Shown here in pieces: positions 1 through 64,000 of a DNA stretch of 64,000 nt. The notes under the pieces were generated by a model. It was not told where the DNA came from. It searched no databases and worked only from the letters and a program-made list of their open reading frames with translations. The position numbers were made by a program, and so were the translations under genes. Source of the stretch: Escherichia phage vB_EcoM_phAPEC6. The DNA lies in sequence record MK817115.1, one strand, 5' to 3'. Each line of letters opens with the position of its first letter. Position 1 is the stretch's first letter.

Positions 1-1583
<1,583 letters not shown>

Positions 1584-2183: not shown

Positions 2184-2197
2184 TAGGAGGATAGATT

Positions 2198-2887: not shown

Positions 2888-2900
2888 TATTTTTCAAAAG

Positions 2901-2929
2901 AAAAGGAGAGCATTTGCTCTCCTTTTTTT
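2901..2929. terminator. Bidirectional intrinsic terminator (ggagagca-tt-tgctctcc flanked by A-run and T-run)
   Basis: Perfect 8-bp stem, 2-nt loop, T-run 2923-2929 and A-run upstream; sits between convergent genes. Confidence 0.7.
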
Positions 2930-2934
2930 ATATG

Positions 2935-8513: not shown

Positions 8514-8542
8514 CGTTTGTATTCCCTTACGTTTATTAAGTT

Positions 8543-8570
8543 AAAAAGAAAGCCTCCGTCATTGGAGGCT
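8543..8570 (-). terminator. Intrinsic terminator (agcctcc-gtcatt-ggaggct then T-run on minus strand)
   Basis: 7-bp stem; minus-strand T-run is the complement of aaaaagaa; lies downstream of the 109-aa ORF. Confidence 0.5.
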
Positions 8571-8592
8571 ATTTAATATATTTTAGTACTAA

Positions 8593-8895
8593 TTAGTAAT
8601 CATCTGCTTGTGGAAGATTATTAGTAACACTAAGAATAGTTTCGATATTATCGAGTTTATTTTGTTTGTCAAAGTAATCACCTTTGTACATACGTTGTGC
8701 AGCTTGTTTGATATCAGATGCATCGATACCAAGTTCATCAGAAACACTAGAAACAAAATCAGATAAGGATGCTTTGGTATCATCAATGAAAGTTAGTTGT
8801 ACAACAATGTTGTTAAGTGCGTCACCGAGACGTTTACGTTGTTCATCGTTTAGATCACGAATTTCAACTTTAACTTCTTTTTTAGATTTAGCCAT
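8593..8895 (-). CDS. Hypothetical protein
   Basis: ORF track 8593..8922; preferred start ATG 8893-8895 (MAKSKKEV) with GGAGAA RBS. Confidence 0.4.
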   Translation of the reverse strand: MAKSKKEVKVEIRDLNDEQRKRLGDALNNIVVQLTFIDDTKASLSDFVSSVSDELGIDASDIKQAAQRMYKGDYFDKQNKLDNIETILSVTNNLPQADDY

Positions 8896-34108: not shown

Positions 34109-34597
34109 ATGAGTAAATGGGAAATTAAAAATACAGATGAGCAATTTTTTAAGGAAATTAAAGAATTTGAAGGAACTATTGCTTATCAGAAAAAACTTGG
34201 TTATTTTAAAAATGATAAGTTTTGGGTATATAAAGACAGCTTAGGTCTTGATACTATTGGCTATGGTCACCTAGTTTTACCTGGTGAAAATTTCAAGAAT
34301 GGTTTAACAGAAGCACAAGCTGACCAACTTCTTCTTAAAGATGCTCAAACTGCGTACAATGATGCAAAATCAATTTATGAACAATTTGGTATGACCGCAC
34401 CTGTACAGGTTCAACGTGTATTATGGTTAATGGTATTCCAAATGGGAAAAACCAAAGTTTTGAAATTTAAAAAAGCAATGACCGCATTAGGTAAAGCTGA
34501 TTACAAAACTGCTGGTAAAGAATTGCGTGATAGTACATGGTATAAACAAACCACTTCACGAGCGGAAAAGATGGCACGTATCGTTGAATCCGTATAA
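34109..34597 (+). CDS. T4-type lysozyme (GH24), probable endolysin
   Basis: EFEG / D / TIGYGH triad positions, LWLMVFQMGKTKV, WYKQTTSRAEKMA align with T4 lysozyme as recalled; 162 aa. Confidence 0.85.
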   Translation: MSKWEIKNTDEQFFKEIKEFEGTIAYQKKLGYFKNDKFWVYKDSLGLDTIGYGHLVLPGENFKNGLTEAQADQLLLKDAQTAYNDAKSIYEQFGMTAPVQVQRVLWLMVFQMGKTKVLKFKKAMTALGKADYKTAGKELRDSTWYKQTTSRAEKMARIVESV

Positions 34598-38602: not shown

Positions 38603-38650
38603 ATATCATAAATAAATCAAATGAATGAACGAATTATATGGAGTCCAAAA

Positions 38651-41600
38651 ATGACTAATAATTTTAAGTTTCAACCTACACAGATGGCTGAAGCAGTACA
38701 GAAGAAGCTTTTTATTAAAAGATTGCCTGAGTGGATGCAAGGCTTAGAAGATATTCAAAAAGTCAGTGATGATGTTATTCAACAATGGTTTAATCCGGCT
38801 GAAAACGAATTAGTTGACGGCTATATTGGTGATATGGGTTCTCCTGCCGCTGCTGGTAATATCTTCTTACATGAAAGTACTGTAGCACGTCAACTTTATC
38901 AGTTGTCCACTGCTTACGTCTCAAAAAATGATGATTCGACAATTCGTTCAATTCAATTTTATGATGATCTAGTTGGATACATGAATCATTATGGAGCACT
39001 AACCGATAATGAAAGCCGTTTGTTCAACGGTAAGTTTTATGCATGGACTCCAGCTATTAACCCAAATAAAATGAACAATTTTAGCTCATATCTTTGGGAT
39101 ACTAAAAACTCTTATAATATTACTTCACCTGATTACATTGTAATGGAACGTGGAGCACTTAATGGTAATACATGGTCACTACAAAACTTTTGGTATACTT
39201 TAGGTGAAACATTAGAAGATGGCTCAATATTAACTGAAGAATTAATGCAAGATTCACGTTTTATTCGTGCACGTGCACCAATTATTGAATATAATAAAAA
39301 TATTGAGCTAATTAACTACGGTACAAAATTCCGTGGAACTGTTGATCTGTTCTCTGATATTATTAAACCTGAAGATATCGTTCAAAAAGATATTAATAGT
39401 GGTATACGTATTGATGGTATTATTCCGCAAGATGGAATGCGTATTCTATTCACCAGTATTGGTAACAATGGTGAAAACAATAGAATTTATAATGTATATG
39501 TGAAAAAAATGCAAGATGGTACTCGTGTTTATGGTTTAGCACTAGATCCAGAAGAAGAAACCGAATCACGCCCAAGTGGTGAACCTCAAGATGGTGATGT
39601 TGTTCTAATCACTAAAGGTAATGAGTATGGTAATAGTTCTATGTACTGGAATGGATCTTTGTGGGTTCGTGCACAATCAAAAACTAGTGTTAACGTATTC
39701 CCTAAATTCCAACTTTATGATCGTAATGGTATCAAACTTGACAACAGTACTACATATCCATCAAGTAACTTTAAAGGTTCAGAGTTGTTTGGTTTTAAAA
39801 TAAATTACAACTATGCAACTGATAGTGTATATGGATATAACATTGAACTTGGTGATTATAATTATTACATTTATGAAAACTTTTTACAATCCCAACGTTA
39901 TACCTATGACCATCTTGGAAAAGAAGTTGAAATTGATGGTTTATACTATTATAACATTATTGATGAAAATAATGAAATGAATCTTCAAACCGATTGGGTT
40001 CGTTCAGAAGAGTACTCTAAACAATTTGTAAAACAAACTCCACAAGTCCAACGTACTGATATGTATCGTGTATTCAGTACTGTTTATGATATGGAAGTTT
40101 TTAAAGAACCAGTTGATGGTATGTATGCATATGTTATTGAAGTTGATAGAACATATCAGTACTATAAAGCTGACCGTGAAACTTATCTAGATTGGCATCC
40201 AATTACTGGTGATGGTGTTCAGATTGTAAAATATGACCATACATTCGAATTGGCACAAAAAGTTTTAGATAATGATTCTGATATTATTGAAGTTGTGGTT
40301 GATGGTGTTGATGTGTCCAAATATACCAAAAATGTTTCAAAAGGTCAAGTACAAAGCATCACTCTAGATAGTACTGTAGAATTGGATGAAGATTCTGTTA
40401 TTCAAATTAGAACTTATAGCAGTACTGTAACTCCTAATAAAGAATTAGGTGCATATGAAGTTCCAATCAACCTACAAAATAACCCATATAATTCTAATAT
40501 TATATACATTAACCAAGGTGACTACACTTTACATTTTCAGGATATTATTCAAAAGAACATTACACGTGGTTCTTCTGATGATTTCAATGACTATGAAGAA
40601 CGTTTGGCTAAAGGATTGGTTAATAATGGCGTAGGTACTAAAATTATCCAAAATGAAGCATCTATGCTTCCATTGATGGCACATACTGCAAATGAAGATA
40701 TTGATTTGTTTGAAGCAACTATGTTTATGCAATCTGAATATTTTAGATTCATTAATAAATTTAATACACAAATGCTTCGTATGTATGATGAAAATCCATC
40801 AGACTTTTTACAAAATAGTGCTGCAAACATTGTTGATGCAATTTTAACTACTATTAATATGGGACGTGATAGTTCATTCCCATTCTATTATGATAATGTT
40901 GGAAGTACTTCTGGATTCATTCGTGCATTTATACCACCAACACCACAGTTCTTAGGTATTCTTCAAGCATATGTACCAGAAAAAGCGACATTCCTCACTG
41001 CTGGTAGTAAACCAAGCTGTTATAACATCAGTCATACTGGTATTATTTCCAAAGCATACCGTGTTATCAATGGTGTTGATAAAATGGATGATGTTGTATA
41101 TGAATTAGAAAATAGAATTTTTAATAGTATTGATAATAAATTCAAAGATGTTGATTACGTACCAGTATTGAATAGTGATGACCTTTTCCCTACACCATAT
41201 TTCACTAAAACTGAATATAGTGCTGAAGAGAAACAAACATTATTACTACGTGGATACATTAACTTCACCGCAACTAATGGTATCAGTAATAGTACACATG
41301 ATTATGATCCTAACAATTGGAGAACTTGGAACTATACTGGCACTTATTATGTAGTTAATGGTCAAAGTACTGAAATTCCTGCACGTGGTTCATGGCGTGC
41401 CATTTACACTGACCAATATGGTACATATCGCCCAGCTACCCATCCGTGGGAAATGTTTGGCTTTACACAACGTCCAACTTGGTGGAACCAAGAATACGAA
41501 CCAACGGCTGTTCAAGTTGGTGAACGTGATAGTGATGTTGTATATGTATATGAAGCACTTGTTATGAATGAGCAAGGTGATTTAGTTCCTAGTGGTCTTT

Positions 41601-44600
41601 GGGATATTGACGGAACTATTGGAGATAGCAGTACTGGAACTATTTTATTTGGTGATCGTCGTGGTCAATATGACAAATATAAAAGATTTGGTGTACAGCC
41701 ATTCAAAATTACAAAAACTGGAAATAAAACATCTTCTGGTATTGATATTTGTGTGGTTGAATATATTGCACCTGAAATTTTAGGTTTAGTGTCTGGATCT
41801 TTAAATCATAGAGCAGAACCTTGGACATATGGTGATATGGGTGACATGGAATTTACATACATGAACACTACATTGTTTGCATATGACCAAATGATGCTTT
41901 TGTATAAAGCTAAACCAGCACAATTTGCTAACTATTTCTGGGATACCCGCAACGATAACTTAAAAGAAGTATTCACTGATGGTTCACAATTCCTTTATGG
42001 TGATACACGTAAGCGTATTAATTTTGATAAAAATACAGTAGTTCATGGTGAAAATAGCACAAGAACAATTGGTTATCAAATGTTTGTAAGTGACCATTTG
42101 ATGTATCAAAATAAAAATATTACCACCAAGTATGGGGATGTAGTTCGTTCTTCTTATATAAATGTTGGTCATAAAATTGGAGGATTTACTAAAGCAGATC
42201 AGCTAACATTCAATGCTAAATCTTTCGGTCTTATTTCACAAGAAAACCAAACCATTGGTCTTGTTCGTTCTAATAATATCCGTGATGAGCAAATGAGTGC
42301 GATCAAAATTACTTGGAATGGTAGTGCATATCAGATTGATGGATATGATCTAGTTGGTGCTAAATTTAAATATAAACTTCCAGTAAAAAATGGTAGAAAA
42401 GTAACTCTTAAATTGGAAAACCGTAATGTTGTTCATTATAATGAATGGAAGTCTGAAGCTTCAATTGAATATGGTAAAGTTTTCAATAGTTACCAAGAAG
42501 TTTATACTTTTATTTGTGGATATGGTGAATATCTTAAAGAACATGGTTGGATTTTTGAAGATGTAAATGATAGTGGTGCTCAACAAGATTGGAACACTAT
42601 TGCTAAAGATTTCGTGATCTGGAGTCAGAATTCTCTAGTAACTGGTGAATTTATTTCTTGTACCCCAAGTGCTGCAAACGCTAAATTTGGGGCAGACTTT
42701 GGTTCAGTACAATCTATTACGCAAAATAATGGTGGTGTATGGTCATTACTTGATGATAATAACCAAGGTATTCGCCAATATGAAATTGAAACTTCTCGTA
42801 TTGGAAATATCTTCACTGTTAGAACTTTAGAATCTAATAAACGCATTGCATTGATTCGTTTAAGTTTGTGTTCATATGAACATGCTGTTATTTTTGATGA
42901 TAAAACTATTTTTGGTGATTACATTTATCAGCCAACATATGGTTCTATTCAAGAACTAATTAAAATGTATGGATATATTACTGGTTCATGGACTGGTCGC
43001 CTACAAGCTCCTGGATTTATTATCTTGGAAGCTGGAACACTACCATCATTTGAAAAATTAGTGTCGGATTTCCAACATTATTATGATAGTGAAACTCCAG
43101 TAAGTGATGTACAATTACAAGAGTTGTCAAACCATTTGATTGGTTATCAATCTCGTGATTATCTACAGCGTATGATTAGTAGTGATGTTAGTCGTGTTGA
43201 TTTCTATAAAGGATTCATTCACGATAAAGGTACTAACCAAGTTTTAGAACGTGTACTTCGTGTTTCTAAATCATATGACACTGATGAATATAAAGCATTA
43301 CAAGAATGGGCATTTAAAATTGGTACATATGGTAATATTGATGGTAAGAAAAACCTTCAATTTAAACTAATCAATGACCAATTTAAACAACAACCTCAAA
43401 TGGTTTCTTTTGATGTAAATGCAACTTCAAATGGTAATGGTAATCATATTGTATACTTCGGTGAGCAAGGTAAAGATCCTCGTTGGATTACACGTCCAAA
43501 TGGTAAGTTCTCATTCCCAATGCGTAGTGGAAGAAGTGAAAACATCCAACTTCCAGATATTGGTCCAGTAACATTGGATGAAGTATCGTACACAACAAAA
43601 GATTTCAGTACTGCATATAATGACCGCATAACTTATACTAATGGTAAAGGTGAAAATCCTGAATCTGTGTGGATGTTTAAAGACGGTAATGGTTTGTGGA
43701 ACATTTTTGAATTGGTTGATACTAATGTACAAATGGTTTCTATAACACCTATTGAAAATACCGATGTGTATGCTGAACAATTTTGTAAAGTAACTTTAAC
43801 TGATAATGTACCACTTGAAGATGGTGATTATTATTATTTTGTTGATGAAACTAACTTTATGCCAGATACTTTAACAGTAGAAAGTCAATATTATACTGCT
43901 GGTTCTGATCCTAAAGTTATGGTAGTTCCATTTGACACTTCTATTGATATTGAATTTACTGATCCAGATACACGTCCACGTTTGTATCGTTATGTATCAC
44001 GTTTTGCCAGTACTGATGAACGTCAAGCTTACATTGACAAGAAATATAGTTTTAAAGCACCACAAAGTACTTTATTTGATCGTCCAACGACATATGATGA
44101 ACGTACTAACATTACTGAGCTATATCTAAACGTTTATGACCCAATTAATGGTGTTATTCCAGGTGCGGCTATGCAAAACGTAACATATACTTCACCAGTT
44201 GATCCTGCACAGTATAATAGTAATGGAGAGTTAATCCAGGCTTGGGGTGCTGATAAAGTTGGTCAAGTATGGTGGAACACTAGCACTGCATTTTATTTGG
44301 ATTATACTCGTGCAATTTATGACGCAGACGGTAATGTTGATATTGATGCAACCAATGAATACAAACGTTACAACTGGGGCCGTTTGTTACCACATAGTAC
44401 CATTGATGTGTTAGAGTGGGTTTGTTCACCAGTTGAGCCATATAACTGGGACAAATACTGTAAAGATGTTGCTAAGAAAAACAAAAATAATACTATGTAT
44501 CTACCAAGTGGAACTGCACTTGAAGATAATTATAGTACATTTTTGGAATATGATAGTTCAACTGATAGTTATGTAACAAAATACTATTTCTGGGTACGTG

Positions 44601-47600
44601 ATACAATTTATGTACCACCACTACATACCAGAACGAAATCATGTACTGACATTGCTCGTATTATTAAAGATCCAACACAGCTAAACATTCCTTGGTTCGC
44701 TCCAATAAATGAAAACTCGTTTATTCTTAGTAATATGCAATTTAAAGTGAATGATGATACCAGTATTTTAACTGTTTCTTATTACATGGATAGTACTGAA
44801 GTTGTTAAACATGACCAGTATCAACTATGTAAAGAAGGTGACAGCTATAACTTTAACCCACTAATTTGGGATTCAATGTGGAACTCACTAATTGGTCAAG
44901 AAACAACTGAATCAGGTTCTGTGATTAATTTATTATATCCAGATGTTGATAACGGTTTAGGATCAAACAAAACTTGGTTCCAAAATGTTATAGAAGCTCG
45001 TAGAAACTTTGTAGAAAGTGCTAATAATTATTATAGGTCACAAAACATAACCACTAATAGTGTTGTTATGGAAGATGTGTTTAATGTTAAAACCACTGAA
45101 GTTAACCCTAATGAAGTTTCTTTCCGTGTATTGTCTTACAATAATGAATTAGTTATTGCAGTTGAAAGTGATAAATTTAAAGAAAATGACGCTGTTATTT
45201 TAAGTACTAGTGGATATCTACCAAATCCATTAACTTCTAGTGCTGTTTATTTTATTCACTTCGACGAAAATGGATATATTCAGTTAATGAATAGTCCAGC
45301 AAACGCGGGTAGTGTTGTTACTATAACGTTAGAGAACAAAGGTGAGGGACAACATAAAATGATTAAACAATCTGATTATGTTGAATCACTAGGAACTTCA
45401 TTAGACATGACTCAGTACTGGTCATATGCTGATTGGTATGATGTTGGATATGATAGTAACACGACTTATACTCAAGAGTCAAGCTTAGAAGATGCTAATA
45501 CTAAAAACTACCAAGTTGGCGATATTATCAGAGTTACCGATAGTGAAAACATTTGGACATTGTATATTAAATCACAATCACGCGATTCAATTTATTGGAA
45601 AGCGATTGGTCGTGAAAACAGTACAGTTGAACTCAATGATATGCTTTACGCAGATTATAGTGTTCATAATGATAATGGTTCACTAAGCAATCGTGAAATC
45701 AACGTTCGTAAAGCACTAGCTTTACTCAAAAATTCTTTCGATTTACATCAAAGCGAAATTGTTTTTGATATGGTCAAATATGTACATGTTGAACAAAGTG
45801 TTGTGGATTGGGTATTTAAAACATCATATATCTATATTGTTGGTTTGGAACAATCATTAGTTCAAAACTATTCAAACGATAATTTGATTAATCAAATTGT
45901 TGAATATTTTGAAGAAGTTAAACCTTATAGAACTAAAATTCGTTCACAAATAGAGCAAAAGACATCTGATGATGATTTAATAAAAGGTCTATGTAATGAT
46001 TTAGATCCTAATGGATATATTTTCGTTGATGGTTCTTGGATCAAAACTGAAAAAGATATTTGGGATTATGAGTACGCTCAATTTAATGAAATTACCCAAA
46101 AATGGGAACAGGTAGGTTCACTACCAAGTGATTTCGTTACACCAAATAGAAGATTCCAAGAAATTGATATTATTATGCATTATGATAATATTCAGTGTAA
46201 ACCAAATGAAGATTTGGCAAGCATAAATGAATTAGTAAGTGTTAATAACAAATATCAATCCAATGAAAAGGATGCTGTTAGTAACTATGAATTACAACGT
46301 TATATATATTCTTTCCCAGAATATAGTGAAGAAACTTTCGATCTTCTTATTGCTTATCAAATGCAAATCTACTATCCAGAATTGGATGTAACACTAGGAA
46401 CAGCATATGGCGTTAACCAGTGGTATAAAGACCATGCGGAAGATTTAGAAGCAACTGATGAATTCACTGCTACATTGGAACGTGTTTATAAAGAATCAAC
46501 GCATAACGATATGTTTACTGACCTTAGACAATATGTTCAGTATAACACATTGGCAAACCGTTTGAAACTTTATAAAGATATAAGTGATGAGAAAATTCAC
46601 GATGAAGTTGGATGTGGATTTAGTGGACTTACTTATAATGACAATCCTAGTACTAGACTTCCATTAGGCTTTTCTTCTAGTAATGATTATAACTATGGAT
46701 ATTTTGAAATAAGCAGTGAATTGTATCAAAAATACATTTCATTAATTAAAGATAAAAATCCTGACGCATCAGACTATGAAGTAAAAGTTAAACTTGAAGT
46801 TGAGTATGGTGTATATGTTTATCGTTATGATGAAGTAGGTGGTGATACCCGTTTCTATACTGATGCTATTCACGTATTAGCAGGTATGAGAGGGTTATTC
46901 GACAAAGACGCTACTGATAAGTACGAAAAAGCTGAAGAGATTCTTAGTAAGACCCCAATTGATATCTATGCAATTACAATGATTCCACGAAAATATGTTT
47001 ACTTAAATGTTAACGGTGTATATCAAAGTATACCTGATGAACAAAGTATTGATGATTTCATGGAAGATTATTTTATCACAAATGGTGAAATGGTTGAACT
47101 AGCTGAAATAAATCTTGATGATTTACCACTAGATCAAAATAATCCAATGTATTCTGATTATCAATATATACTTGATAGTATTACTGAAGCTAAGTACTTC
47201 AATGATATGAATGCATTTGATAACCTAGCATTGGAATCTCAAACTTCTTCAATAAAATGGGAAGTTAAAGATGATGAAGTTGATCCTTATATTGTGGATA
47301 TATCTGACATAAACCCTTCTGGGCGTGATGTAGGTCAAATTAGATTTACAGTTGATGGATATGGGTTTGACAATGTATCTCTTGTACAATTACGTGATAA
47401 CAGCAGATATCAAACTGAAGGTATGGCAATTATCAATCCATATAAACATACAGAAGCAATTGTAAGTATTCCTTCATATGCTAAGATTGAAAATGATATT
47501 AATAAAACAACATCGAAGTTTGATGAAAAATATTTCTATCGTGTGAGATCTATTAATAGCTTAACTGAAGCAGAAATAGTTGACAATGACCTATCTGATG

Positions 47601-48622
47601 GTGATAAGGTGATGATTTTCACTCCTGATGGTGAAGATTTTGTGAGATATCAAAATCACACATGGGAAACAATCTTGCGTGTATCTAACATCAAAAACAA
47701 TACAACTCCGATCCTATTCACTGTAAGAAATACAGGTAAGGAAACGATTGAATTGATTGATGAGAGTACTGGTGCAGTTCTCCGTTATGATAACATCACT
47801 CTTGCACAACAAAATGAGCCAGTACAGCCTCTAGCATTGAACATTGTTCGTGTTAGAACATTTGCTGACCCTGAATTTGTCAAGAATGGTATTAAATTGT
47901 ATGAACAAAATAGAAATTACACCATTGATGTAATTAATTATGATGTTTTCTACGATACTACTTTAAATGGTGGTAAGTACAATGACGGAATAACACCAGA
48001 TGACGTTGACGTTTGGATAATCTCCAATGAAATATTTGATGTTGATGGAATTACTATCGATAACGGTTATAACTTACCAATTACGGGTGCGGGAGTTCTT
48101 AGTGAATTGGCAAGAACTAAAATGACTGATAGTTTAGAAATCAACGTTATCGAATATGATTCAAGTGTTATTCAACCGTTTAGAAATAATGAAGGGATAT
48201 GGGTTTATGGATTCCCAATGGTTGACGGTATGTATATCGGTGTTGTTGGTGGTACTGTTACTAACATCACAACCATTAGTGAAGAAAATACAACCTATGT
48301 TTCTCAACCTAAATCAATAAGTCCTTATAGTATTAGAAATAATGTTTTATCCGGTTCAGCCGCGAACATGAATGATATTATATCGATTGGATATGAAAAA
48401 GTTGAAGTTAGAAATGCAAATAATTTACTCCGTGGTGTAATGTATAGTGCAGAACATGATTTTAAACTTAATACCACATATTCTTTCAATGGAATTAATT
48501 TAGGTAATTATGATATGTTAAAACGTTACACACAAAATAGTTACACTATAGATCTTTCAGTATACACTGATAGTCTACAAGTTAGTGGTAATGATATTAA
48601 AAATATATTATTAGTTAAGTAA
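38651..48622 (+). CDS. Giant structural protein (~3323-3333 aa), probable baseplate/tail component
   Basis: Uninterrupted ~10 kb frame; GGAG RBS before ATG 38651 (ORF track starts at 38621); follows gp25/gp6-like genes; Asn/Tyr/Thr/Gly-rich with no obvious long internal repeats. Confidence 0.55.
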   Translation: MTNNFKFQPTQMAEAVQKKLFIKRLPEWMQGLEDIQKVSDDVIQQWFNPAENELVDGYIGDMGSPAAAGNIFLHESTVARQLYQLSTAYVSKNDDSTIRSIQFYDDLVGYMNHYGALTDNESRLFNGKFYAWTPAINPNKMNNFSSYLWDTKNSYNITSPDYIVMERGALNGNTWSLQNFWYTLGETLEDGSILTEELMQDSRFIRARAPIIEYNKNIELINYGTKFRGTVDLFSDIIKPEDIVQKDINSGIRIDGIIPQDGMRILFTSIGNNGENNRIYNVYVKKMQDGTRVYGLALDPEEETESRPSGEPQDGDVVLITKGNEYGNSSMYWNGSLWVRAQSKTSVNVFPKFQLYDRNGIKLDNSTTYPSSNFKGSELFGFKINYNYATDSVYGYNIELGDYNYYIYENFLQSQRYTYDHLGKEVEIDGLYYYNIIDENNEMNLQTDWVRSEEYSKQFVKQTPQVQRTDMYRVFSTVYDMEVFKEPVDGMYAYVIEVDRTYQYYKADRETYLDWHPITGDGVQIVKYDHTFELAQKVLDNDSDIIEVVVDGVDVSKYTKNVSKGQVQSITLDSTVELDEDSVIQIRTYSSTVTPNKELGAYEVPINLQNNPYNSNIIYINQGDYTLHFQDIIQKNITRGSSDDFNDYEERLAKGLVNNGVGTKIIQNEASMLPLMAHTANEDIDLFEATMFMQSEYFRFINKFNTQMLRMYDENPSDFLQNSAANIVDAILTTINMGRDSSFPFYYDNVGSTSGFIRAFIPPTPQFLGILQAYVPEKATFLTAGSKPSCYNISHTGIISKAYRVINGVDKMDDVVYELENRIFNSIDNKFKDVDYVPVLNSDDLFPTPYFTKTEYSAEEKQTLLLRGYINFTATNGISNSTHDYDPNNWRTWNYTGTYYVVNGQSTEIPARGSWRAIYTDQYGTYRPATHPWEMFGFTQRPTWWNQEYEPTAVQVGERDSDVVYVYEALVMNEQGDLVPSGLWDIDGTIGDSSTGTILFGDRRGQYDKYKRFGVQPFKITKTGNKTSSGIDICVVEYIAPEILGLVSGSLNHRAEPWTYGDMGDMEFTYMNTTLFAYDQMMLLYKAKPAQFANYFWDTRNDNLKEVFTDGSQFLYGDTRKRINFDKNTVVHGENSTRTIGYQMFVSDHLMYQNKNITTKYGDVVRSSYINVGHKIGGFTKADQLTFNAKSFGLISQENQTIGLVRSNNIRDEQMSAIKITWNGSAYQIDGYDLVGAKFKYKLPVKNGRKVTLKLENRNVVHYNEWKSEASIEYGKVFNSYQEVYTFICGYGEYLKEHGWIFEDVNDSGAQQDWNTIAKDFVIWSQNSLVTGEFISCTPSAANAKFGADFGSVQSITQNNGGVWSLLDDNNQGIRQYEIETSRIGNIFTVRTLESNKRIALIRLSLCSYEHAVIFDDKTIFGDYIYQPTYGSIQELIKMYGYITGSWTGRLQAPGFIILEAGTLPSFEKLVSDFQHYYDSETPVSDVQLQELSNHLIGYQSRDYLQRMISSDVSRVDFYKGFIHDKGTNQVLERVLRVSKSYDTDEYKALQEWAFKIGTYGNIDGKKNLQFKLINDQFKQQPQMVSFDVNATSNGNGNHIVYFGEQGKDPRWITRPNGKFSFPMRSGRSENIQLPDIGPVTLDEVSYTTKDFSTAYNDRITYTNGKGENPESVWMFKDGNGLWNIFELVDTNVQMVSITPIENTDVYAEQFCKVTLTDNVPLEDGDYYYFVDETNFMPDTLTVESQYYTAGSDPKVMVVPFDTSIDIEFTDPDTRPRLYRYVSRFASTDERQAYIDKKYSFKAPQSTLFDRPTTYDERTNITELYLNVYDPINGVIPGAAMQNVTYTSPVDPAQYNSNGELIQAWGADKVGQVWWNTSTAFYLDYTRAIYDADGNVDIDATNEYKRYNWGRLLPHSTIDVLEWVCSPVEPYNWDKYCKDVAKKNKNNTMYLPSGTALEDNYSTFLEYDSSTDSYVTKYYFWVRDTIYVPPLHTRTKSCTDIARIIKDPTQLNIPWFAPINENSFILSNMQFKVNDDTSILTVSYYMDSTEVVKHDQYQLCKEGDSYNFNPLIWDSMWNSLIGQETTESGSVINLLYPDVDNGLGSNKTWFQNVIEARRNFVESANNYYRSQNITTNSVVMEDVFNVKTTEVNPNEVSFRVLSYNNELVIAVESDKFKENDAVILSTSGYLPNPLTSSAVYFIHFDENGYIQLMNSPANAGSVVTITLENKGEGQHKMIKQSDYVESLGTSLDMTQYWSYADWYDVGYDSNTTYTQESSLEDANTKNYQVGDIIRVTDSENIWTLYIKSQSRDSIYWKAIGRENSTVELNDMLYADYSVHNDNGSLSNREINVRKALALLKNSFDLHQSEIVFDMVKYVHVEQSVVDWVFKTSYIYIVGLEQSLVQNYSNDNLINQIVEYFEEVKPYRTKIRSQIEQKTSDDDLIKGLCNDLDPNGYIFVDGSWIKTEKDIWDYEYAQFNEITQKWEQVGSLPSDFVTPNRRFQEIDIIMHYDNIQCKPNEDLASINELVSVNNKYQSNEKDAVSNYELQRYIYSFPEYSEETFDLLIAYQMQIYYPELDVTLGTAYGVNQWYKDHAEDLEATDEFTATLERVYKESTHNDMFTDLRQYVQYNTLANRLKLYKDISDEKIHDEVGCGFSGLTYNDNPSTRLPLGFSSSNDYNYGYFEISSELYQKYISLIKDKNPDASDYEVKVKLEVEYGVYVYRYDEVGGDTRFYTDAIHVLAGMRGLFDKDATDKYEKAEEILSKTPIDIYAITMIPRKYVYLNVNGVYQSIPDEQSIDDFMEDYFITNGEMVELAEINLDDLPLDQNNPMYSDYQYILDSITEAKYFNDMNAFDNLALESQTSSIKWEVKDDEVDPYIVDISDINPSGRDVGQIRFTVDGYGFDNVSLVQLRDNSRYQTEGMAIINPYKHTEAIVSIPSYAKIENDINKTTSKFDEKYFYRVRSINSLTEAEIVDNDLSDGDKVMIFTPDGEDFVRYQNHTWETILRVSNIKNNTTPILFTVRNTGKETIELIDESTGAVLRYDNITLAQQNEPVQPLALNIVRVRTFADPEFVKNGIKLYEQNRNYTIDVINYDVFYDTTLNGGKYNDGITPDDVDVWIISNEIFDVDGITIDNGYNLPITGAGVLSELARTKMTDSLEINVIEYDSSVIQPFRNNEGIWVYGFPMVDGMYIGVVGGTVTNITTISEENTTYVSQPKSISPYSIRNNVLSGSAANMNDIISIGYEKVEVRNANNLLRGVMYSAEHDFKLNTTYSFNGINLGNYDMLKRYTQNSYTIDLSVYTDSLQVSGNDIKNILLVK

Positions 48623-56627: not shown

Positions 56628-56737
56628 TGTTTAAGCCCTTTTAGTAGTGAACTTTCATTTATTTATTAATGATAACGAAATGTATTTTGTACTGATAAAT
56701 ATTGGTATATGACATTAACTCATACAAGGGAAATATT

Positions 56738-57865
56738 ATGACAATTTCATTTAACAATGGGTCCAGTGGTTCATGTAATAACTCCGGCATCAAAAGTCTA
56801 GTTATTAATGGTGCTGGGCATTTAATTGTAACCTATGCAGATAACACAATTCAAGATTTAGGTCTTGTTGTAGGACAGAATGGCGAGAATGGTAAAAACT
56901 TTTATCCTAATGAGATTGGTTTTGAAATTCCTTCCGAACAATTTAAAGTTGGTGAACCACTTGGGTGGTGCTACTTAAGCTTGGCTAACAATACCAGTAC
57001 TCTATACTTTAAATCAAATGATGCACAAGATCCGACAAGTACATGGATTAGTGTTGAGTTTGGTAAAGGTGATACGGGTGAAGCGGGTAAGCCGTTCCAC
57101 ATTGATAGTGCTGGAACTACTTTCCCAACAACTGGTCTTTTTGATAACTATACATTTTATAATACTCAAGATGGTAAACTTTATTTCTATCAAAGTGTAA
57201 CTGCTACTTGGAGTGATGGTATACCTTTCCGTGGTGAACAAGGTCCGCGTGGTCGTTTCCATATTGATAGCAGTGGTGATCAATTTCCAAGTATTGAAAA
57301 TCTTCCAGTTGATTATTGTTTTTATAACAACACTGATGGAAAACTATATTATGTTGATGAAGTAACTACAACTACCCCTCCTTCAAAAGAGTGGAGTGAG
57401 GGTATTCTATTCCGTGGTAAAGAAGGTCAGCAAGGTATTCAAGGTATACAAGGCGAACCAGGTGCACCAGGTAAAGATACAATTTCTATTAGAAATACAA
57501 TAGATAGCTCATGGACTAACGCACTATTAGTTATTGGTACGTGTCCTGCTGGATATGTAGTTTCTAATATTGATGTAAACGTTATACAACCTTATTCTCT
57601 TCCTGTAACTGATATGTTTGTACGTTTTGGTGGTGAAGCACAAGAAGATATTGGTGGGACTGTAATTGCACCAACTTCCTACTTTGATATCAATCGTCAG
57701 ATGCGTTTTATTGTTAATGAAACTAATCATGCAGCATCCGATGTTGATGAAATTATTTCATGTGTATTCAACGATTCTGTTAACAACAGTCCTTATGGAA
57801 AAATGGAAATTATTTGTACTCTTTCATGGCAAGCTCCTATCCAACCGATTCAAGATAATATTTAA
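56738..57865 (+). CDS. Tail fibre-like protein with collagen-like Gly-X-Y run and internal duplication
   Basis: GKEGQQGIQGIQGEPGAPGKD; duplicated FHIDSxG...DGKLY...W(S)xGIxFRG blocks; ORF-track start 56702 is TTG, ATG 56738 has AAGGGA RBS. Confidence 0.5.
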   Translation: MTISFNNGSSGSCNNSGIKSLVINGAGHLIVTYADNTIQDLGLVVGQNGENGKNFYPNEIGFEIPSEQFKVGEPLGWCYLSLANNTSTLYFKSNDAQDPTSTWISVEFGKGDTGEAGKPFHIDSAGTTFPTTGLFDNYTFYNTQDGKLYFYQSVTATWSDGIPFRGEQGPRGRFHIDSSGDQFPSIENLPVDYCFYNNTDGKLYYVDEVTTTTPPSKEWSEGILFRGKEGQQGIQGIQGEPGAPGKDTISIRNTIDSSWTNALLVIGTCPAGYVVSNIDVNVIQPYSLPVTDMFVRFGGEAQEDIGGTVIAPTSYFDINRQMRFIVNETNHAASDVDEIISCVFNDSVNNSPYGKMEIICTLSWQAPIQPIQDNI

Positions 57866-57879
57866 GGGAGGATGTCATA

Positions 57880-60021
57880 ATGGCAGTATTTTCTAATTTT
57901 GAAGGAACTATGCAGCCCAAATTCATATTGGGGAAAAAAGGTGCTTCAATAAATTTTATCAATGATTCAGTTTCTATAAAAGATTATCTAGGAGAACAGT
58001 TCCTACCACTGAAGGTAGGAACTTCATCTGACCCTAATTCAGCAGTTAACGTAAAATATCTTGAAGATAACCCTAATGCATTATTTGGTGTTGTACCCCC
58101 TACCGATGATGTAGGAAAGAACAATAATACGTATTTTCAAATTGATGAAGATGGTATTGTTGATATTTTTGCAAAAAGTAATGGTACATGGGTAAAATCA
58201 TTATACATTAATAAAAAAGTTCTATCCAGTAAAAATGGTGGCGATTTCATCGGACTTATTACTGGAGGTACAGTTCAACAGGCCCAGTTTTATATAACAC
58301 CAGAAGAATTTGGTGCTAAAGGTGATGGCGAAACTGATGACACTGCTGCTGTAAATTTATGTGCTGCTTATGCTAAAGAAAATAAAATCCAAATTCAGGC
58401 TGGTGGTAATTACCGTATCAAAACTGCAATATACCTGGAAGATGTAACTTGGTTTGGGGGAACTATTACTGGTAATGGTGGTACTATGGTATCCGTTATT
58501 AATTCCCAAATACAATTTGCAACACTTACTGGATGTTATTTAAAATTCTTCGGTGGCGATGGTAAGTTTTATTTTAATAAATTTATAAACATCACAAGTA
58601 CTGCTGCATTTTTAATGCAAGGTATGACACAACCAGGAACAATAGATTTTTGCTTTAATGAAATGACCCAATGTAAGTATGGTGTTCTTCAACAAGGTAC
58701 TGGTGAGAAAATGAAGGTTGGTAGATATTCATATAACCACATACATGATATATATGGTGATGCAATTGAACTAAACGTAATTAACTCACATTATCCTGAT
58801 GGTTTTGTGATTGAAGGAAACGTAATTGAAAACGTTGATGGTTCTAACGCTCCAATCCCACTTTCAAACTGGGGCATTGGTATTGGCGTTGCTGGTTCTG
58901 GTCCTTATGGTTTAGATGCACCAGATACACAATATGTCAGAAACTTTGTTATTAAAAATAACAGACTATATAATGTTAGACAATGTATCCACGTTGAATT
59001 AGGAATGGACTTTAAAATACTTAATAATGAAGTTTATCCATCATCTTTAGTTTCTGTTGGTACTGGATTAACCACTGCTGGTGTTATAACTTATGGTTCG
59101 AAAGAATTCATTATTGATGGGTTGACTGGTCATTTGCTTAATGATCCTTCTATCACAAATAGAATGGTTTCAATAAACTGGGGTGTAACTTCTGGTCGTT
59201 TTGCTGGACCACCTAGAAACTTTAAAATTTCTAATCTCTATATTCCAGAGTCTTCTATACTTGTTTATACTTCCGGTTCTGATAATTGGTTAAATAATAC
59301 AGAATTGAGCAATATCACCTGTTCTAAAATCCTTTGGCGTGGTTTGCCATCATCATCTAAATTTAGTGATATTAGAACTAAAGAATTAGATGTAATTGGT
59401 CAACACCTCTCTACCGAAGGCGAAGGTGGTGGTATCTATACTCGCTCTAAATATACTTATACTAATTGGACTAACTGTGTTGTTCAAGATGATTGTAATG
59501 TTTCAAAATATAGTTTTTCTAAAATGTATGTAGACAGAATAGACCAATCATCTAATAACTTTAAAGTTACAACTGCAATCGATGGTACAGGACACCGTGG
59601 CCCAGTACTGATACCTGTAGTTGAGCAATATTATATTCCATACGATACTTTTCCTGGGGGACGCTATTTCTCTGAAGGCACGATTATTCATAAACAATCG
59701 GGTGGAAAATATATTGTAACTGTTGGTGGTTCTTTTTTCGGAAAATATGACACAATTAGACAAACGGTAGCAGGACAAACATACATAGAAGCATTGGGTG
59801 TGTCATGGGGTGAAAACCAATATGCAAAAGCTGCTGGTACTGAGATCATTATATCCGGTGCTGGTGAAAATGGTGGTGATTTGAGAACGTATATAACTCG
59901 TGCAGTGTATGTTGTAAACAACGTATATAGAATTGATATTGCAGATCCTATCATAACAGCAACTGCCGCTGGTGCAGCATTAAAAGCTGCCCAACCCGTA
60001 ACTTACATAACCCTACCATAA
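57880..60021 (+). CDS. Tail fibre/tailspike with probable right-handed beta-helix (depolymerase-like) domain
   Basis: N-terminus shared with next gene; Gly/Asn/Thr-rich repeating strands typical of pectin-lyase-like folds; AAGGGAGGA RBS. Confidence 0.5.
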   Translation: MAVFSNFEGTMQPKFILGKKGASINFINDSVSIKDYLGEQFLPLKVGTSSDPNSAVNVKYLEDNPNALFGVVPPTDDVGKNNNTYFQIDEDGIVDIFAKSNGTWVKSLYINKKVLSSKNGGDFIGLITGGTVQQAQFYITPEEFGAKGDGETDDTAAVNLCAAYAKENKIQIQAGGNYRIKTAIYLEDVTWFGGTITGNGGTMVSVINSQIQFATLTGCYLKFFGGDGKFYFNKFINITSTAAFLMQGMTQPGTIDFCFNEMTQCKYGVLQQGTGEKMKVGRYSYNHIHDIYGDAIELNVINSHYPDGFVIEGNVIENVDGSNAPIPLSNWGIGIGVAGSGPYGLDAPDTQYVRNFVIKNNRLYNVRQCIHVELGMDFKILNNEVYPSSLVSVGTGLTTAGVITYGSKEFIIDGLTGHLLNDPSITNRMVSINWGVTSGRFAGPPRNFKISNLYIPESSILVYTSGSDNWLNNTELSNITCSKILWRGLPSSSKFSDIRTKELDVIGQHLSTEGEGGGIYTRSKYTYTNWTNCVVQDDCNVSKYSFSKMYVDRIDQSSNNFKVTTAIDGTGHRGPVLIPVVEQYYIPYDTFPGGRYFSEGTIIHKQSGGKYIVTVGGSFFGKYDTIRQTVAGQTYIEALGVSWGENQYAKAAGTEIIISGAGENGGDLRTYITRAVYVVNNVYRIDIADPIITATAAGAALKAAQPVTYITLP

Positions 60022-60037
60022 AGGAGATTATATTAAA

Positions 60038-60934
60038 ATGGCAGTTTTTTCTAATTTAGAAGGAACCATGAAGAAGTCCTTCATTCTTGGGAAGAATGGT
60101 GCACAGATTACCACAAATGGTAGTGTTGTGCAAATTCAAAACTACTCAGGAACACAACTTCTTCCAATTTCAGCAGGTGAACCAACTGCAAACACACACT
60201 TGGTTACATTAGGATATTTAAACGCACACAGTGGTGGTGGTAGTTCTGGTATCTTACGTGGAACAACAGCACCATCCGATTCGATCGGTCTAGATGGTGA
60301 CGTTTACTTTTTGGTTGATAGTACTAATGTTCTTCAAATTTATATTAAAGATCTTGGTATTTGGAAACCATTTAAAGGTAGCTCACCTGGGACTGATAGC
60401 TCATATGTAACTACTGAAATAGTTCCTGTTTCTGCATTTACATTAGTGCCAGATACTACTGATCATTATACTTACACACTACCAGAATCAGTTCATGGTA
60501 GAGGTTCTGATATTATGATCCAACTACAAGGTGACCCAGGTAATGTTGCATTGGAATCAGTATTCCAAACCACAGTAACAGTTAGTGGTATTGGGGATAT
60601 AACAATTGATGTGATTGGTCAAATCACAGATTATGCAAGTGTTAAAGTAAACATTATAGGAGCAACAACAATGACAGTACCTTATAGTAAATTGGTAAAC
60701 CAAGCAGATTGGGTTTCTAGTGATGGTGATTTTACAATCACTATTCCTGCATCTGAACACAATCAAACACCAGATAATTTGTATATTTCAATTTATGCAA
60801 ATAAAACACCTGGGAGTGTTTCGTCATCTCCATTTGAATTGGTAGTGACTGATACACAAATTAGTAGTACTGGTGATGTAATCTTCACTTCTGATATTTC
60901 TTTCAGTGGTAAGATTGTCATCTCTGGTAAGTAA
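60038..60934 (+). CDS. Tail fibre protein sharing the N-terminal anchor module with the 57880 gene
   Basis: MAVFSNLEGTMKKSFILGKNGAQI vs MAVFSNFEGTMQPKFILGKKGASI; divergent C-terminus; AAGGAG RBS. Confidence 0.5.
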   Translation: MAVFSNLEGTMKKSFILGKNGAQITTNGSVVQIQNYSGTQLLPISAGEPTANTHLVTLGYLNAHSGGGSSGILRGTTAPSDSIGLDGDVYFLVDSTNVLQIYIKDLGIWKPFKGSSPGTDSSYVTTEIVPVSAFTLVPDTTDHYTYTLPESVHGRGSDIMIQLQGDPGNVALESVFQTTVTVSGIGDITIDVIGQITDYASVKVNIIGATTMTVPYSKLVNQADWVSSDGDFTITIPASEHNQTPDNLYISIYANKTPGSVSSSPFELVVTDTQISSTGDVIFTSDISFSGKIVISGK

Positions 60935-60943
60935 AAAAATTAA

Positions 60944-60973
60944 CCAGACTTGTTCTAAATAAGTCTGGTTTTT
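60944..60973 (+). terminator. Intrinsic terminator (ccagactt, 9-nt loop, aagtctgg, T5)
   Basis: 8-bp stem and T-run read directly. Confidence 0.55.
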
Positions 60974-61071
60974 ATTATATTTGCTTTTGTCAAATAACAT
61001 ATTAATTGTTGGATAACAGCATAATAAAACTAAATATATACATATTAACAAGGTTATAATGGAGGGTATAA

Positions 61072-64000
61072 ATGTACTCAATAAAAACTGACTTAGATAT
61101 TACTGGTGCTGGTACGGTTGGTAAGGATCTTTTAGTCAAAGGAAATGCTGTTTTCAACAATAACCTAACTGTAAATGGTACTGTAACTTTTGCAAATGCA
61201 ACTTTTACTGCCATTGAATCATCAACTGCCAACATTACATCTACTTTAGATGTAGGTGGCAAAGCAACACTTTCTGGTGGTCTTGGTGTTGAGGGTAATA
61301 CTACAATCGGTAGTGCAGTTGTTGGGTCTGATACAGCAACAATTAATTCAAACGCTACCTTTAACGGTACTGTATCAGTTGGTTCTGATTTTACACAAAC
61401 TGCTGGTACAACCACTCTACAAGCAACTAAAGTTAAAAACTTAGAAGTTGCTGAAACAACAGCATTTAAAGGTAATATTACTGCTGATGTTGGGACTACT
61501 GCTGCATTTGATAAAATTACTGCTAATACCGCAGAAATTACTAATGTAAGTACAACAGATATTAGTAGTACTGGTACTGCTACATTTAACGATGTGACAA
61601 TTAGTGGTACACTTGGTGGTGAGTTTAATCTATCTGACTTAAATGCAGTAACATTGAACGTTACTGGTGCATCTAACCAACAAGGTGCAGTAACTTTCGG
61701 TGCTAACGTAACTGGTATTAACAGTACTGCTACTTTTAAAGACATTCGTATTGGTTCTAACTCTGAATCACAAACCTTCAGATTAAGCTTCCCTTACACT
61801 GCTCCTGGTAAACGCCCAACTGTTATTCTACAAAACGAAATTCAGTCCGAGCTAATGTCACCTGCAAACTTGACAGTATTGACCTCTGCTTCTTTTGGTA
61901 ATGCGTCATTATCTTCTTATGGTATTACTGGTAATGGTCTAAACAAATTAGATTATCTAACAGTTTCTGGTAACAATACACAATCACCAGACACACCACT
62001 ATTAGAAGTTCAAAAAGGAAAAACTAAAGTTGCTGACTTTGAAGTAACCGGAACTGCAACTATTCCAAATATCGAAAGTACTGGTACTGCTAATTTTAAT
62101 AACATTAATGTTTCTGGTCTTCTTGGTGGAACGTTCCAACTAGACGATATTAATGCAGTATCTTTGAACGTTACTGGTGTAACTTCATTAGTTGGTGGTG
62201 TTACTCTTGGTTCTAATATTACTGGTTATAACAGTACTGCATCCTTTAAAGCTATCAGCTTAGGTCAAAATAGTCAAGATGCGGCAGTGAAACTAGGTTT
62301 TGGATATACTGCACCAGGTCAACGCCCAACAGTTATTCTACCTAACGAAGTTCAATCAGAAGTCGTTTCTCCTTCTACATTGAACGTTCTTAAAACAGCA
62401 ACTTTCGGTAACGCTTCTCTTTCCACTTATGGTATTACTGGTAACGGTCTAAACAAACTAGATTACCTAACTATTACTGGTAACGAAACACAAGCTCCAG
62501 GTACACCATTCCTACAAGTTGGTGGTAAAGCAATTCTTAATGATGTTGAATTTACTGGAACAGTAACTGGACTAACTGTTGATGTTAGTGGGCAGGATCT
62601 AACACCTAATTCTGTTGTCGCGGCAGCAAATATTAAAGGTGCAACACTTGAAAGTACTGGTAACACTACCGTGGGTGCTAAACTAACTGTTACTGGTGAT
62701 ATTGCTGGTACAACTGCAACTCTTTCTGGTGCATTATCCGCTGGTTCAGTAAGTTCTGGTTCTATTACTGGTACAACTTCTGTATCTGCACCAACAATTA
62801 GTGCATCTACTGAAGTAACGGCCCCTACTATCACTGCGAGTGGAACTGTAAGTGGGCAAACAATTAACGGTACTAATATTAGTGCAACAACTCTGACTGC
62901 ACCAACTATTAGTGGTAATACTAACTTTACAGAAAATGTTGATATTACTGGTAGCTTAACTGTTGGTTCTCTAGACTTGAGCACTACCGATATTAATGCT
63001 AAATCAATCACTACTACTGCTGGTGCAACTATTGGTGGTGATTTAGTAGTTCAAGGCTCTTTTGATTTATCAGCAGCCGACCTTAATGTTAAATCATTAA
63101 CTACTTCTGGTATTGTTAAAAGTAATGATCTTGTTAATGCTAACGTACTTCCAGTACTTAATAGTACTACCATAACGGCAACTACTGTTAATGCTGATGA
63201 TATAACTGTTACCGGATCTGCTAATTTGGGTACAATTTACTCAAGCTCATCTGTTCTAGTTGGGTCAACTTTAACTGTAACTGGTGAAACTACAACTGCA
63301 TCGTTGGTTACCCCAACCATTTCAAATGCAAGTGGTGTCACTATTTCCAATAATACAAATGTAACTGGTGACCTAACTGTTACTGGTGCAGTTATTCCAG
63401 GCTCTATCGATCTAGCAACAACTGATGTTAATGCTAAATCCATTACTACTACTGCTGGTGCAACTATTGGTGGTAACCTAACTGTTAATGGTACAGTAGA
63501 TCTTACTACGGCTGATGTTACTGTCAAATCTTTAACTAGTACTGGTGCAATTGTTAGTAATGAATCCACAATTAGTAGTGTTCTACCTAAACTTCAAAGT
63601 ACTGATGCAACTATTGCAACCCTTGGTTCAACAACTGCAAATATTACTAATTTGAATGTTACTGGTGCATCTACCGTAGCTGACGTAACTTCTTCAGGTA
63701 AAGTTAAAGCAGTTTCTGTAGAAACCCCAACAATTAGTAACGTTGATGGTGTATCTATTTCCAATAATACATCTATTACTGGTGACCTAACAGTTTCTGG
63801 TACAGTAACACCAGGTGCAATTGATTTGAGCACAACTGATGTAAGTGCAAAATCCATTACTACTACCGCTGGAGCAAATATTGGTGGAGATCTTGTTGTT
63901 TCTGGTACAGTTGATTTAAGTGGTGCTGATGTATCTGTTAAATCTCTAACAAGTACTGGTATTATTACAGTTAGTAGTGCAGAAGGTATCAACGTTCTAC
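61072..64000 (+). CDS. Repeat-rich tail fibre protein, 3'-truncated by window end
   Basis: ATG 61072 after GGAGGG RBS; frame read by hand with no stop to position 64000; T/G/V/N/S-rich; absent from ORF track because incomplete. Confidence 0.6.
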   Translation, partial: MYSIKTDLDITGAGTVGKDLLVKGNAVFNNNLTVNGTVTFANATFTAIESSTANITSTLDVGGKATLSGGLGVEGNTTIGSAVVGSDTATINSNATFNGTVSVGSDFTQTAGTTTLQATKVKNLEVAETTAFKGNITADVGTTAAFDKITANTAEITNVSTTDISSTGTATFNDVTISGTLGGEFNLSDLNAVTLNVTGASNQQGAVTFGANVTGINSTATFKDIRIGSNSESQTFRLSFPYTAPGKRPTVILQNEIQSELMSPANLTVLTSASFGNASLSSYGITGNGLNKLDYLTVSGNNTQSPDTPLLEVQKGKTKVADFEVTGTATIPNIESTGTANFNNINVSGLLGGTFQLDDINAVSLNVTGVTSLVGGVTLGSNITGYNSTASFKAISLGQNSQDAAVKLGFGYTAPGQRPTVILPNEVQSEVVSPSTLNVLKTATFGNASLSTYGITGNGLNKLDYLTITGNETQAPGTPFLQVGGKAILNDVEFTGTVTGLTVDVSGQDLTPNSVVAAANIKGATLESTGNTTVGAKLTVTGDIAGTTATLSGALSAGSVSSGSITGTTSVSAPTISASTEVTAPTITASGTVSGQTINGTNISATTLTAPTISGNTNFTENVDITGSLTVGSLDLSTTDINAKSITTTAGATIGGDLVVQGSFDLSAADLNVKSLTTSGIVKSNDLVNANVLPVLNSTTITATTVNADDITVTGSANLGTIYSSSSVLVGSTLTVTGETTTASLVTPTISNASGVTISNNTNVTGDLTVTGAVIPGSIDLATTDVNAKSITTTAGATIGGNLTVNGTVDLTTADVTVKSLTSTGAIVSNESTISSVLPKLQSTDATIATLGSTTANITNLNVTGASTVADVTSSGKVKAVSVETPTISNVDGVSISNNTSITGDLTVSGTVTPGAIDLSTTDVSAKSITTTAGANIGGDLVVSGTVDLSGADVSVKSLTSTGIITVSSAEGINVL
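61567..62590 (+). repeat. Tandem duplication of a ~512-bp coding unit inside the fibre gene
   Basis: agtactggtactgct... and ggtattactggtaa(t/c)ggtctaaacaaa(t/c)tagatta(t/c)ctaac recur ~510 nt apart; protein blocks YTAPG(K/Q)RPTVIL and YGITGNGLNKLDYLT repeat. Confidence 0.6.
62981..63980 (+). repeat. Three tandem ~415-440-bp coding repeats (~140 aa each) in the fibre gene
   Basis: a(c/a)tga(t/c)(a/g)t(t/a)a(a/g)tgc(t/a)aaatc(a/c)at(c/t)actactac(t/c)gctgg(t/a)gcaa(c/a)tattggtgg(t/a) recurs at ~62981, ~63421, ~63835. Confidence 0.6.

Follow-up and report, generated by a model that had tools for sequence, protein, structure and literature searches.

Conserved N-terminal assembly domains joined to interchangeable enzyme bodies by domain swapping have been described in phages CBA120, G7C, KP32 and RaK2 (PMC10253068). 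The same principle of assembly domain and swappable body, as in CBA120 TSP1-4, G7C gp63.1/gp66, KP32 gp37/gp38 and RaK2 gp526-gp534, is found in a pair of adjacent genes, open reading frames (ORFs) A and B, in a stretch of 64,000 nucleotides from Escherichia phage vB_EcoM_phAPEC6 (record MK817115.1; this whole stretch is called the window below). The gene order at the locus is that of genes 574-573-572-571 of phage 121Q (genus Asteriusvirus, genome about 350 kb), ORF A corresponding to gene 573 and ORF B to gene 572, and the window represents a jumbo coliphage of the 121Q/PBECO4 group. Unlike the branched systems named above, which work with donor and acceptor, the locus has two proteins with the same N-terminal module (N-module) and no donor/acceptor pair. 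With respect to ORF A, the colanidase tailspike gp150 of the Justusliebigvirus phi92 (PDB 6E0V/6E0W) is similarly composed of a catalytic β-helix and C-terminal domains. However, gp150 begins with an unrelated N-terminus of 188 residues where ORF A has a 110-residue Rak2-like module, and the phi92 virion is that of a 148-kb myovirus, as against a 350-kb jumbo phage for ORF A. ORF B is a full member of the phrog_10468 family (GAP32_221/CBB_227/572), labelled 'virion structural protein' and typical of Rak2-like jumbo phages, of which ORF A shares the N-module only and which, unlike ORF B, is reduced to the N-module in phages RaK2 and K64-1. The hyperbranched fibre genes of RaK2 lie at a separate locus and have other N-domains, unlike the module of ORF A and ORF B, and the paper on the RaK2 adsorption complex covers gp098 and gp526-534, without ORF061 (PMC10253068). 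Our analysis suggests that ORF A is a colanic-acid tailspike in which a docking module of the ORF B type was copied onto an acquired colanidase.

The original prediction regarded the long protein, ORF A, as a depolymerase with a β-helix, and this was borne out. Residues 96-712 of ORF A match PDB 6E0V with an expectation value (E) of 1.8e-235 and are 57% identical to gp150 189-801 over 617 residues, and the protein belongs to phrog_6117, 'colanic acid degradation', at E 3e-264. In the AlphaFold2 model (41-sequence alignment; mean predicted local distance difference test score, pLDDT, 84), residues 149-506 form a right-handed parallel β-helix with pLDDT mostly above 90. The top Foldseek match of the model is 6e0v_A (E 2e-62, template modelling score on the target 0.89, 58% identity), followed by the β-helix tailspikes of CBA120 (TSP2), Det7, Sf6 and HK620 and by alginate epimerases; modelling of this C-terminus and the search for pectate-lyase-like folds, which the original prediction had proposed, both led to a β-helix. 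A sub-threshold Pfam match to Pect-lyase_RHGA_epim was also obtained, and a protein 94% identical to ORF A (P0151) bears, as do close homologues, the precomputed family PF27800 'WcaM'. The likeness to gp150 sets in at residue 96 and becomes solid by about residue 105. The junction of anchor and spike lies in the neck. From alignment and model, ORF A can be assigned with high confidence to the colanidase β-helix tailspikes.

Colanic acid is an exopolysaccharide that E. coli and related bacteria produce under stress. Xu et al. (2025), as cited in PMC13450770, are reported to have found that phi92 gp150 hydrolyses the β-1,4 Glc-Fuc bond of colanic acid. At 57% identity to gp150, ORF A probably has the same substrate. 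Many records already carry a colanidase annotation for gene 573. In some public records, for example those of Sharanji, slurp01, BF17 and UE-S1, its homologues are labelled 'colanic acid biosynthesis protein'; the label seems to stem from PF27800 'WcaM', which the family shares. The homology to gp150 indicates that they are degrading enzymes.

We then compared the N-terminal parts of the two proteins. In a single BLASTP comparison, ORF A and ORF B match at E 2e-19, with a convincing alignment over residues 1 to about 110, and global alignment of the N-terminal regions gives 41 identities in 117 positions (35%). The sharing had been noticed before over the first 45 residues or so; the sharing itself stands, its length does not, since the true extent is more than twice as long. 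It can be seen that, first, 17 of the first 22 residues are identical (MAVFSN[FL]EGTM...FILGK.GA) and, secondly, another conserved block lies at about residues 70-108 (G-x2-P-x4-G-x5-YF-x-D...I-x2-K-x2-G-x-W). Past residue 110 or so the sequences are unrelated, ORF A having a β-helix and ORF B Ig-like domains, which agrees with the predicted difference of the C-termini. The description 'Gly/Asn-rich' holds roughly for ORF A (G 11.4%, N 7.3%), and the C-terminus of ORF B is rich in Ser, Thr and Val. At the DNA level the two module copies are about 53% identical, with a longest exact run of 11 nucleotides; the duplication is therefore old and is no recent repeat. AlphaFold2 predicts both N-modules alike, with strands at residues 14-17, 22-27 and 30-35, a helix at 58-64 and then a three-strand hairpin unit.

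Copies of the module were counted in the 352-kb genome of Escherichia phage ECO103 4-12-1. This phage and Escherichia phage EC22.5-2 are 100% identical to the window over positions 56702-61100, where the identity is 99.3% to 121Q and 99-100% to SHEFM2K, SP27 and PBECO4, further members of the group. The first 2 kb of the window have no exact match in OR844650.1, and the strain used for the count need not be the one from which the window comes. A profile of B orthologues gave E 6.6e-34 for ORF A, and every further one of the 3008 six-frame ORFs stayed above E 0.3; the N-module is thus present in exactly two copies, both at this locus, which answers the earlier suggestion of looking for it elsewhere in the full genome. 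By tblastn, two module sites per genome were found in the E. coli records, and in the near-identical Salmonella-labelled records, of the 121Q/PBECO4 group, and one site in every other Rak2-like phage.

In the other Rak2-like genera the one module copy is B, at the same syntenic site, and ORF A is absent. Since B is present once in all Rak2-like genera, it is regarded as ancestral; comparison of gene orders shows that ORF A was inserted between 574 and 572 in the Asteriusvirus group alone. ORF B matches phrog_10468 over its full length (E 1.5e-100) and is 53% identical to GAP32_221, with synteny kept, and the position of the family between a 574-like gene and the long fibre gene is conserved in Rak2-like phages. 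Among 48 B orthologues the mean identity is 90% for residues 1-22 and 65% for residues 1-112, and it falls to 48% for residues 113-298, a gradient that would be typical of an attachment end. The module also occurs alone, in RaK2 ORF061w (115 amino acids, 60% identical to the N-module of ORF B) and in K64-1. In the records of RaK2 (8001-8348, L002), K64-1 and other Klebsiella Alcyoneusvirus phages, the B orthologue consists of this 115-residue N-module only. According to the CBB paper (PMC5259590), RaK2 lacks a homologue of the long fibre gene CBB_226. The joint absence from RaK2 of a CBB_226 homologue and of the Ig-like half of B suggests that this half works with the fibre. The neighbouring RaK2 ORF060w is unrelated to gene 571 (best E 0.34), and its reading as a leftover of that long fibre gene was rejected.

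The C-terminal half of ORF B gave a generic model of Ig-like β-sandwiches, in which neither an enzyme fold nor a specific structural match was detected. Searches of the PDB with the B family returned nothing by sequence, and the best profile match (E 0.49), a serpin, is spurious. Its size and its gp34-like neighbour made ORF B a candidate for a long-fibre connector like T4 gp9. The gp9 fold consists of an N-terminal coiled coil and two β-sandwich domains; it was not detected in ORF B by structure or sequence search.

In other phages the colanidase body is found behind other N-termini. The first 188 of the 804 residues of gp150 are unrelated to the first 95 residues of ORF A; in 268 phage records with a colanidase body the match starts at residue 96-196 of ORF A, the Asteriusvirus group excepted, and the N-module is absent from gp150 and from all colanidases outside that group. 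Homologues of the colanidase carry instead an N-terminal P22 Head_binding domain (P0172), a T7 tail fibre domain (Phage_T7_tail; P0169), a TSP1/Gp66 Tail_spike_N domain (P0159 and P0171) or a tail-collar fibre domain (Phage_tail_fib; P0162). Likewise, the colanidase tailspikes of the small coliphages J8-65, Skarpretter and usur and of rV5/PVP-SE1-like and Phapecoctavirus phages belong to the same enzyme family, with 30-37% identity to ORF A, and differ from it in their N-domains, which are of the P22 head-binding, T7 gp17, TSP1/Gp66 or tail-collar kind. Because known attachment domains occupy the same slot in the homologues, the N-module of ORF A sits at the attachment place of the enzyme family.

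Taken together, we give a probability of about 0.68 to the reading that ORF A is a colanic-acid tailspike made in the Asteriusvirus lineage by copying a B-type docking module onto an acquired colanidase. The N-module of about 110 residues of the ancestral neighbour B (121Q 572; GAP32_221; CBB_227) would have been duplicated, and the copy would have been joined to a phi92 gp150-type colanidase β-helix body, of a kind that circulates among many coliphage lineages behind lineage-specific anchors, to give ORF A. By analogy with 6E0V-type spikes, ORF A would trimerise; the most likely role of the N-module would be to trimerise and to dock ORF A onto the tail or baseplate, where it may occupy or share the same kind of site as B. 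The virion would then carry both a conserved Ig-like appendage (B) and a colanic-acid-clearing enzyme (A), and removal of colanic acid would allow the long fibres and the baseplate to reach the outer membrane. Homology, fold, module boundaries, distribution and synteny being observed, the anchor role of the N-module is proposed with moderate confidence.

As for the virion, the gene 574 orthologue gp253 was detected by mass spectrometry in phAPEC6 virions with 65.6% coverage (PMC7247149), and the B orthologue CBB_227 was detected in virions with 5 peptides and 32% coverage (PMC5259590); under the docking reading ORF A would be a virion component as well. Several points weigh against the proposed origin and role. 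The phAPEC6 virion list obtained by mass spectrometry contains gp253 and gp256, which flank the locus, and lacks gp254 and gp255, the putative orthologues of A and B (PMC7247149), and the 121Q record marks 572 and 574 as structural, not 573. The substrate assignment of ORF A has the 57% identity as its sole basis. No Pfam family or solved relative of the N-module was found in searches of Pfam and the PDB by sequence, profile and structure, and its first 70 residues are modelled at low to moderate confidence; it is therefore the position and the distribution of the module, and not its fold, that speak for an 'anchor'. Finally, at 35% identity the two modules may bind different sites. The AlphaFold2 models of ORF A and ORF B are monomers.

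One alternative is that ORF A docks on B or on the gene 574 protein, so that all three proteins belong to a single branched appendage of the kind known from CBA120, G7C or KP32 and the common module is an interface between partners and not a shared baseplate anchor. We consider this unlikely. A T4 gp10-like or XD branching domain was not detected in the proteins of the locus by Pfam, profile and structure searches, and only two proteins carry the module in the 352-kb genome. The 'branched fibres' of the original prediction are therefore unsupported. Of the two proteins with the module, one is a recognisable receptor-binding protein.

It is still more doubtful that the module is a trimerisation or shaft element spread by duplication, with no docking role, the attachment being elsewhere and ORF A perhaps a soluble enzyme freed at lysis. 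Unrelated collagen-like and LPXTG proteins contain the second module half (G-x3-P-x4-G-x2-GD-x-Y...W) in 2-14 tandem stretches, as would befit a generic β-hairpin block, and a soluble enzyme would agree with the absence of gp254, the putative A, from the virion list and with the lack of a structural mark on 573 noted above. However, A and B are most alike at the extreme N-terminus (residues 1-65), which other spikes carry too and which invariably stands at position 1; wherever an N-domain can be recognised in the other colanidase homologues, it is a particle-binding one; and the stand-alone module of RaK2 makes little sense as a bare shaft. Co-assembly of A and B into mixed trimers through the common module, with enzyme and Ig-like domains on one appendage, could be imagined from adjacent, co-transcribed genes whose modules have the same predicted secondary structure. 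It seems very improbable, however, for modules that are only 35% identical, when the B orthologues of all other genera do their work with no A present and when the β-helix body of a tailspike, such as that of the 6E0V type, has to be built from three copies of one chain. That the N-terminal likeness is due to chance or low complexity is ruled out to near certainty by the BLASTP and profile scores given above and by the gap to the next ORF.

The preferred reading, in which the N-module docks its protein onto the virion, was also considered in the light of other phages and metagenomes. A word-index search with the 114-residue module alone returned 3 proteins only. In an exhaustive HMMER search against 1.84 billion representatives, the module resolved into two parts, residues 1 to about 65 and about 66-112. 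The first part occurs solely at the protein start, in proteins of 113-1366 amino acids that differ in the remainder: it heads A-like colanidases (P0089, P0155), a β-helix with a Peptidase_S74 chaperone and a body like KP32 gp37 (P0093), another β-helix (P0134) and BNR/Asp-box propeller fibres of 1218-1366 amino acids (P0096, P0105, P0124). An IMG/VR scan with the alignment of residues 1-67 added a 684-residue phrog_19988 tail spike (L039). The second part, the hairpin unit, is also tandem-repeated in unrelated collagen-like proteins. The A-like colanidase P0155, 51% identical to ORF A, takes another position within the fibre locus of a more distant metagenomic phage; the module-colanidase cassette has therefore moved or arisen twice.

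Some further observations were made in these searches. The gene for the phrog_19988 spike (IMG/VR 3300007747_000141, 1172-3226) adjoins nrdD/nrdG-like genes for anaerobic ribonucleotide reductase, with no fibre locus near, and a B-like gene (L036) lies on a different contig of the same metagenome. For P0093 and P0096, the IMG/VR context search matched only the S74 chaperone end, or nothing. P0155 (792 amino acids, N-module plus colanidase body) lies at 6320-8698 of a Logan contig from SRR31729320 (L016), directly before thymidylate synthase. In P0083 and P0086 the pattern of the second half forms units of about 45 residues in 6-14 tandem stretches within collagen-like proteins, P0083 having an LPXTG anchor; this looks like an unnamed hairpin repeat common to phage fibres and bacterial surface proteins.

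An exchangeable anchor, as the original prediction had it, is supported by these data: the module fronts unrelated spike and fibre bodies, stands alone in RaK2 and occupies the slot of particle-binding domains. The facts fit, without proving, a docking unit that is self-sufficient and virion-proximal and whose cargo varies. More tentatively, and as something we hold a little below even odds, the 65-110-residue module (MA[VI][FY]SN[FL]xGT[MF]...[LI]GKxG...EPxxxxHxVT..Y plus the GD-Y...W hairpin) might be a widespread, undescribed 'universal plug' in jumbo phages of the Rak2-like group and in their uncultured relatives, which would be blank in RaK2, armed with Ig-like domains in B, and armed with enzymes or propellers elsewhere.

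The features of the locus are collected in Table 1; the limits of ORF A and ORF B are the same as in the original prediction.

Table 1. Features of the 574-573-572 block and its downstream neighbour, in window coordinates.
Feature	Coordinates	Strand	Details
Gene 574 homologue	56738..57865	+	375 amino acids from ATG 56738; phrog_13565, E 4e-225, match from residue 13
ORF A, whole	57880-60021	+	713 amino acids
ORF A N-module, residues 1 to ~108	57880..58203	+	BLASTP against ORF B and module profile; putative virion-docking anchor
ORF A neck/linker, residues ~109-148	58204..58323	+	helices 112-116, 120-123, 132-135, 141-144; low pLDDT
ORF A β-helix, predicted colanidase catalytic body, residues ~149-506	58324..59397	+	AlphaFold2; Foldseek 6e0v_A
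ORF A C-terminal β-rich domain(s), residues ~507-713 plus stop	59398..60021	+	homologous to the C-terminal part of gp150
ORF B, whole	60038-60934	+	298 amino acids
ORF B N-module, residues 1-112	60038..60373	+	ancestral copy; best-conserved part of the protein
ORF B C-terminal half plus stop	60407..60934	+	two tandem Ig-like β-sandwiches (~124-207, ~216-298)
Terminator-like hairpin (intrinsic, 13 pairs) with T run	60942..60980	+	directly 3' of ORF B, at the end of the 574-573-572 block
T4 gp34-like long tail fibre gene, start (121Q gene 571, 1841 amino acids)	61072..64000	+	phrog_4549, E 1.6e-144

Genes 574, 573 and 572 are closely packed, with Shine-Dalgarno sequences; in the 121Q record they are annotated 'tail protein', 'colanic acid degradation' and 'virion structural protein', respectively. 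The gene 574 homologue, which opens the block and bears a short collagen-like stretch, is listed as an ORF from an upstream TTG at 56702. A scan for sigma-70 promoters gave scores no better than those of shuffled sequences, and no promoter was assigned. Gene 571 continues past the end of the window, and the N-module is absent from it by profile search. Upstream in the window lies a baseplate module, which comprises wedge subunits, a lysozyme-bearing hub and a 1153-residue wedge protein. Further genes there encode a virion protein of 3333 residues, a protease like ClpA and a sheath completion protein like gp15. With this baseplate module and the tail genes around it, the ORF A/B pair is placed inside a tail morphogenesis cluster.

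A second adjacent gene pair with a common module was seen in the window. The baseplate hub/tail lysozyme of 887 amino acids (31409-34072, +) has a C-terminal lysozyme domain at residues 728-885, to which the adjoining stand-alone lysozyme of 162 amino acids (34109-34597, +) is 53% identical (E 3e-57). The 3333-residue protein is a single ORF (38621-48622, +) between a baseplate wedge gene and the opposite-strand gene of the ClpA-like protease, and it has the same size as phAPEC6 gp245, a 382-kDa protein that mass spectrometry found in virions (PMC7247149). On the minus strand, the long ORFs at 61002-61745, 62463-63011, 63237-63569 and 63594-63992 are rich in V, P, T and L; they were rejected as genes, being shadow ORFs of the plus-strand gene for the long fibre, which is repetitive and runs from 61072 onward.

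A literature search returned no paper on the N-terminus common to 573 and 572, nor on the module itself. The case is textbook modular fibre evolution, tidy and largely explained, and no new kind of system. It offers a clean and datable example of a jumbo phage that would have gained capsule degradation through duplication of a docking end and a circulating enzyme body, and it corrects the public 'colanic acid biosynthesis protein' labels of gene 573. The limits of an uncharacterised N-module are also defined by it, and the module could serve to graft other depolymerases onto Asteriusvirus phages, a group under consideration for E. coli therapy. If the 'universal plug' exists, a single baseplate or fibre socket would be re-armed through simple gene fusion, and the module would offer a means of engineering which hosts a jumbo phage can infect.

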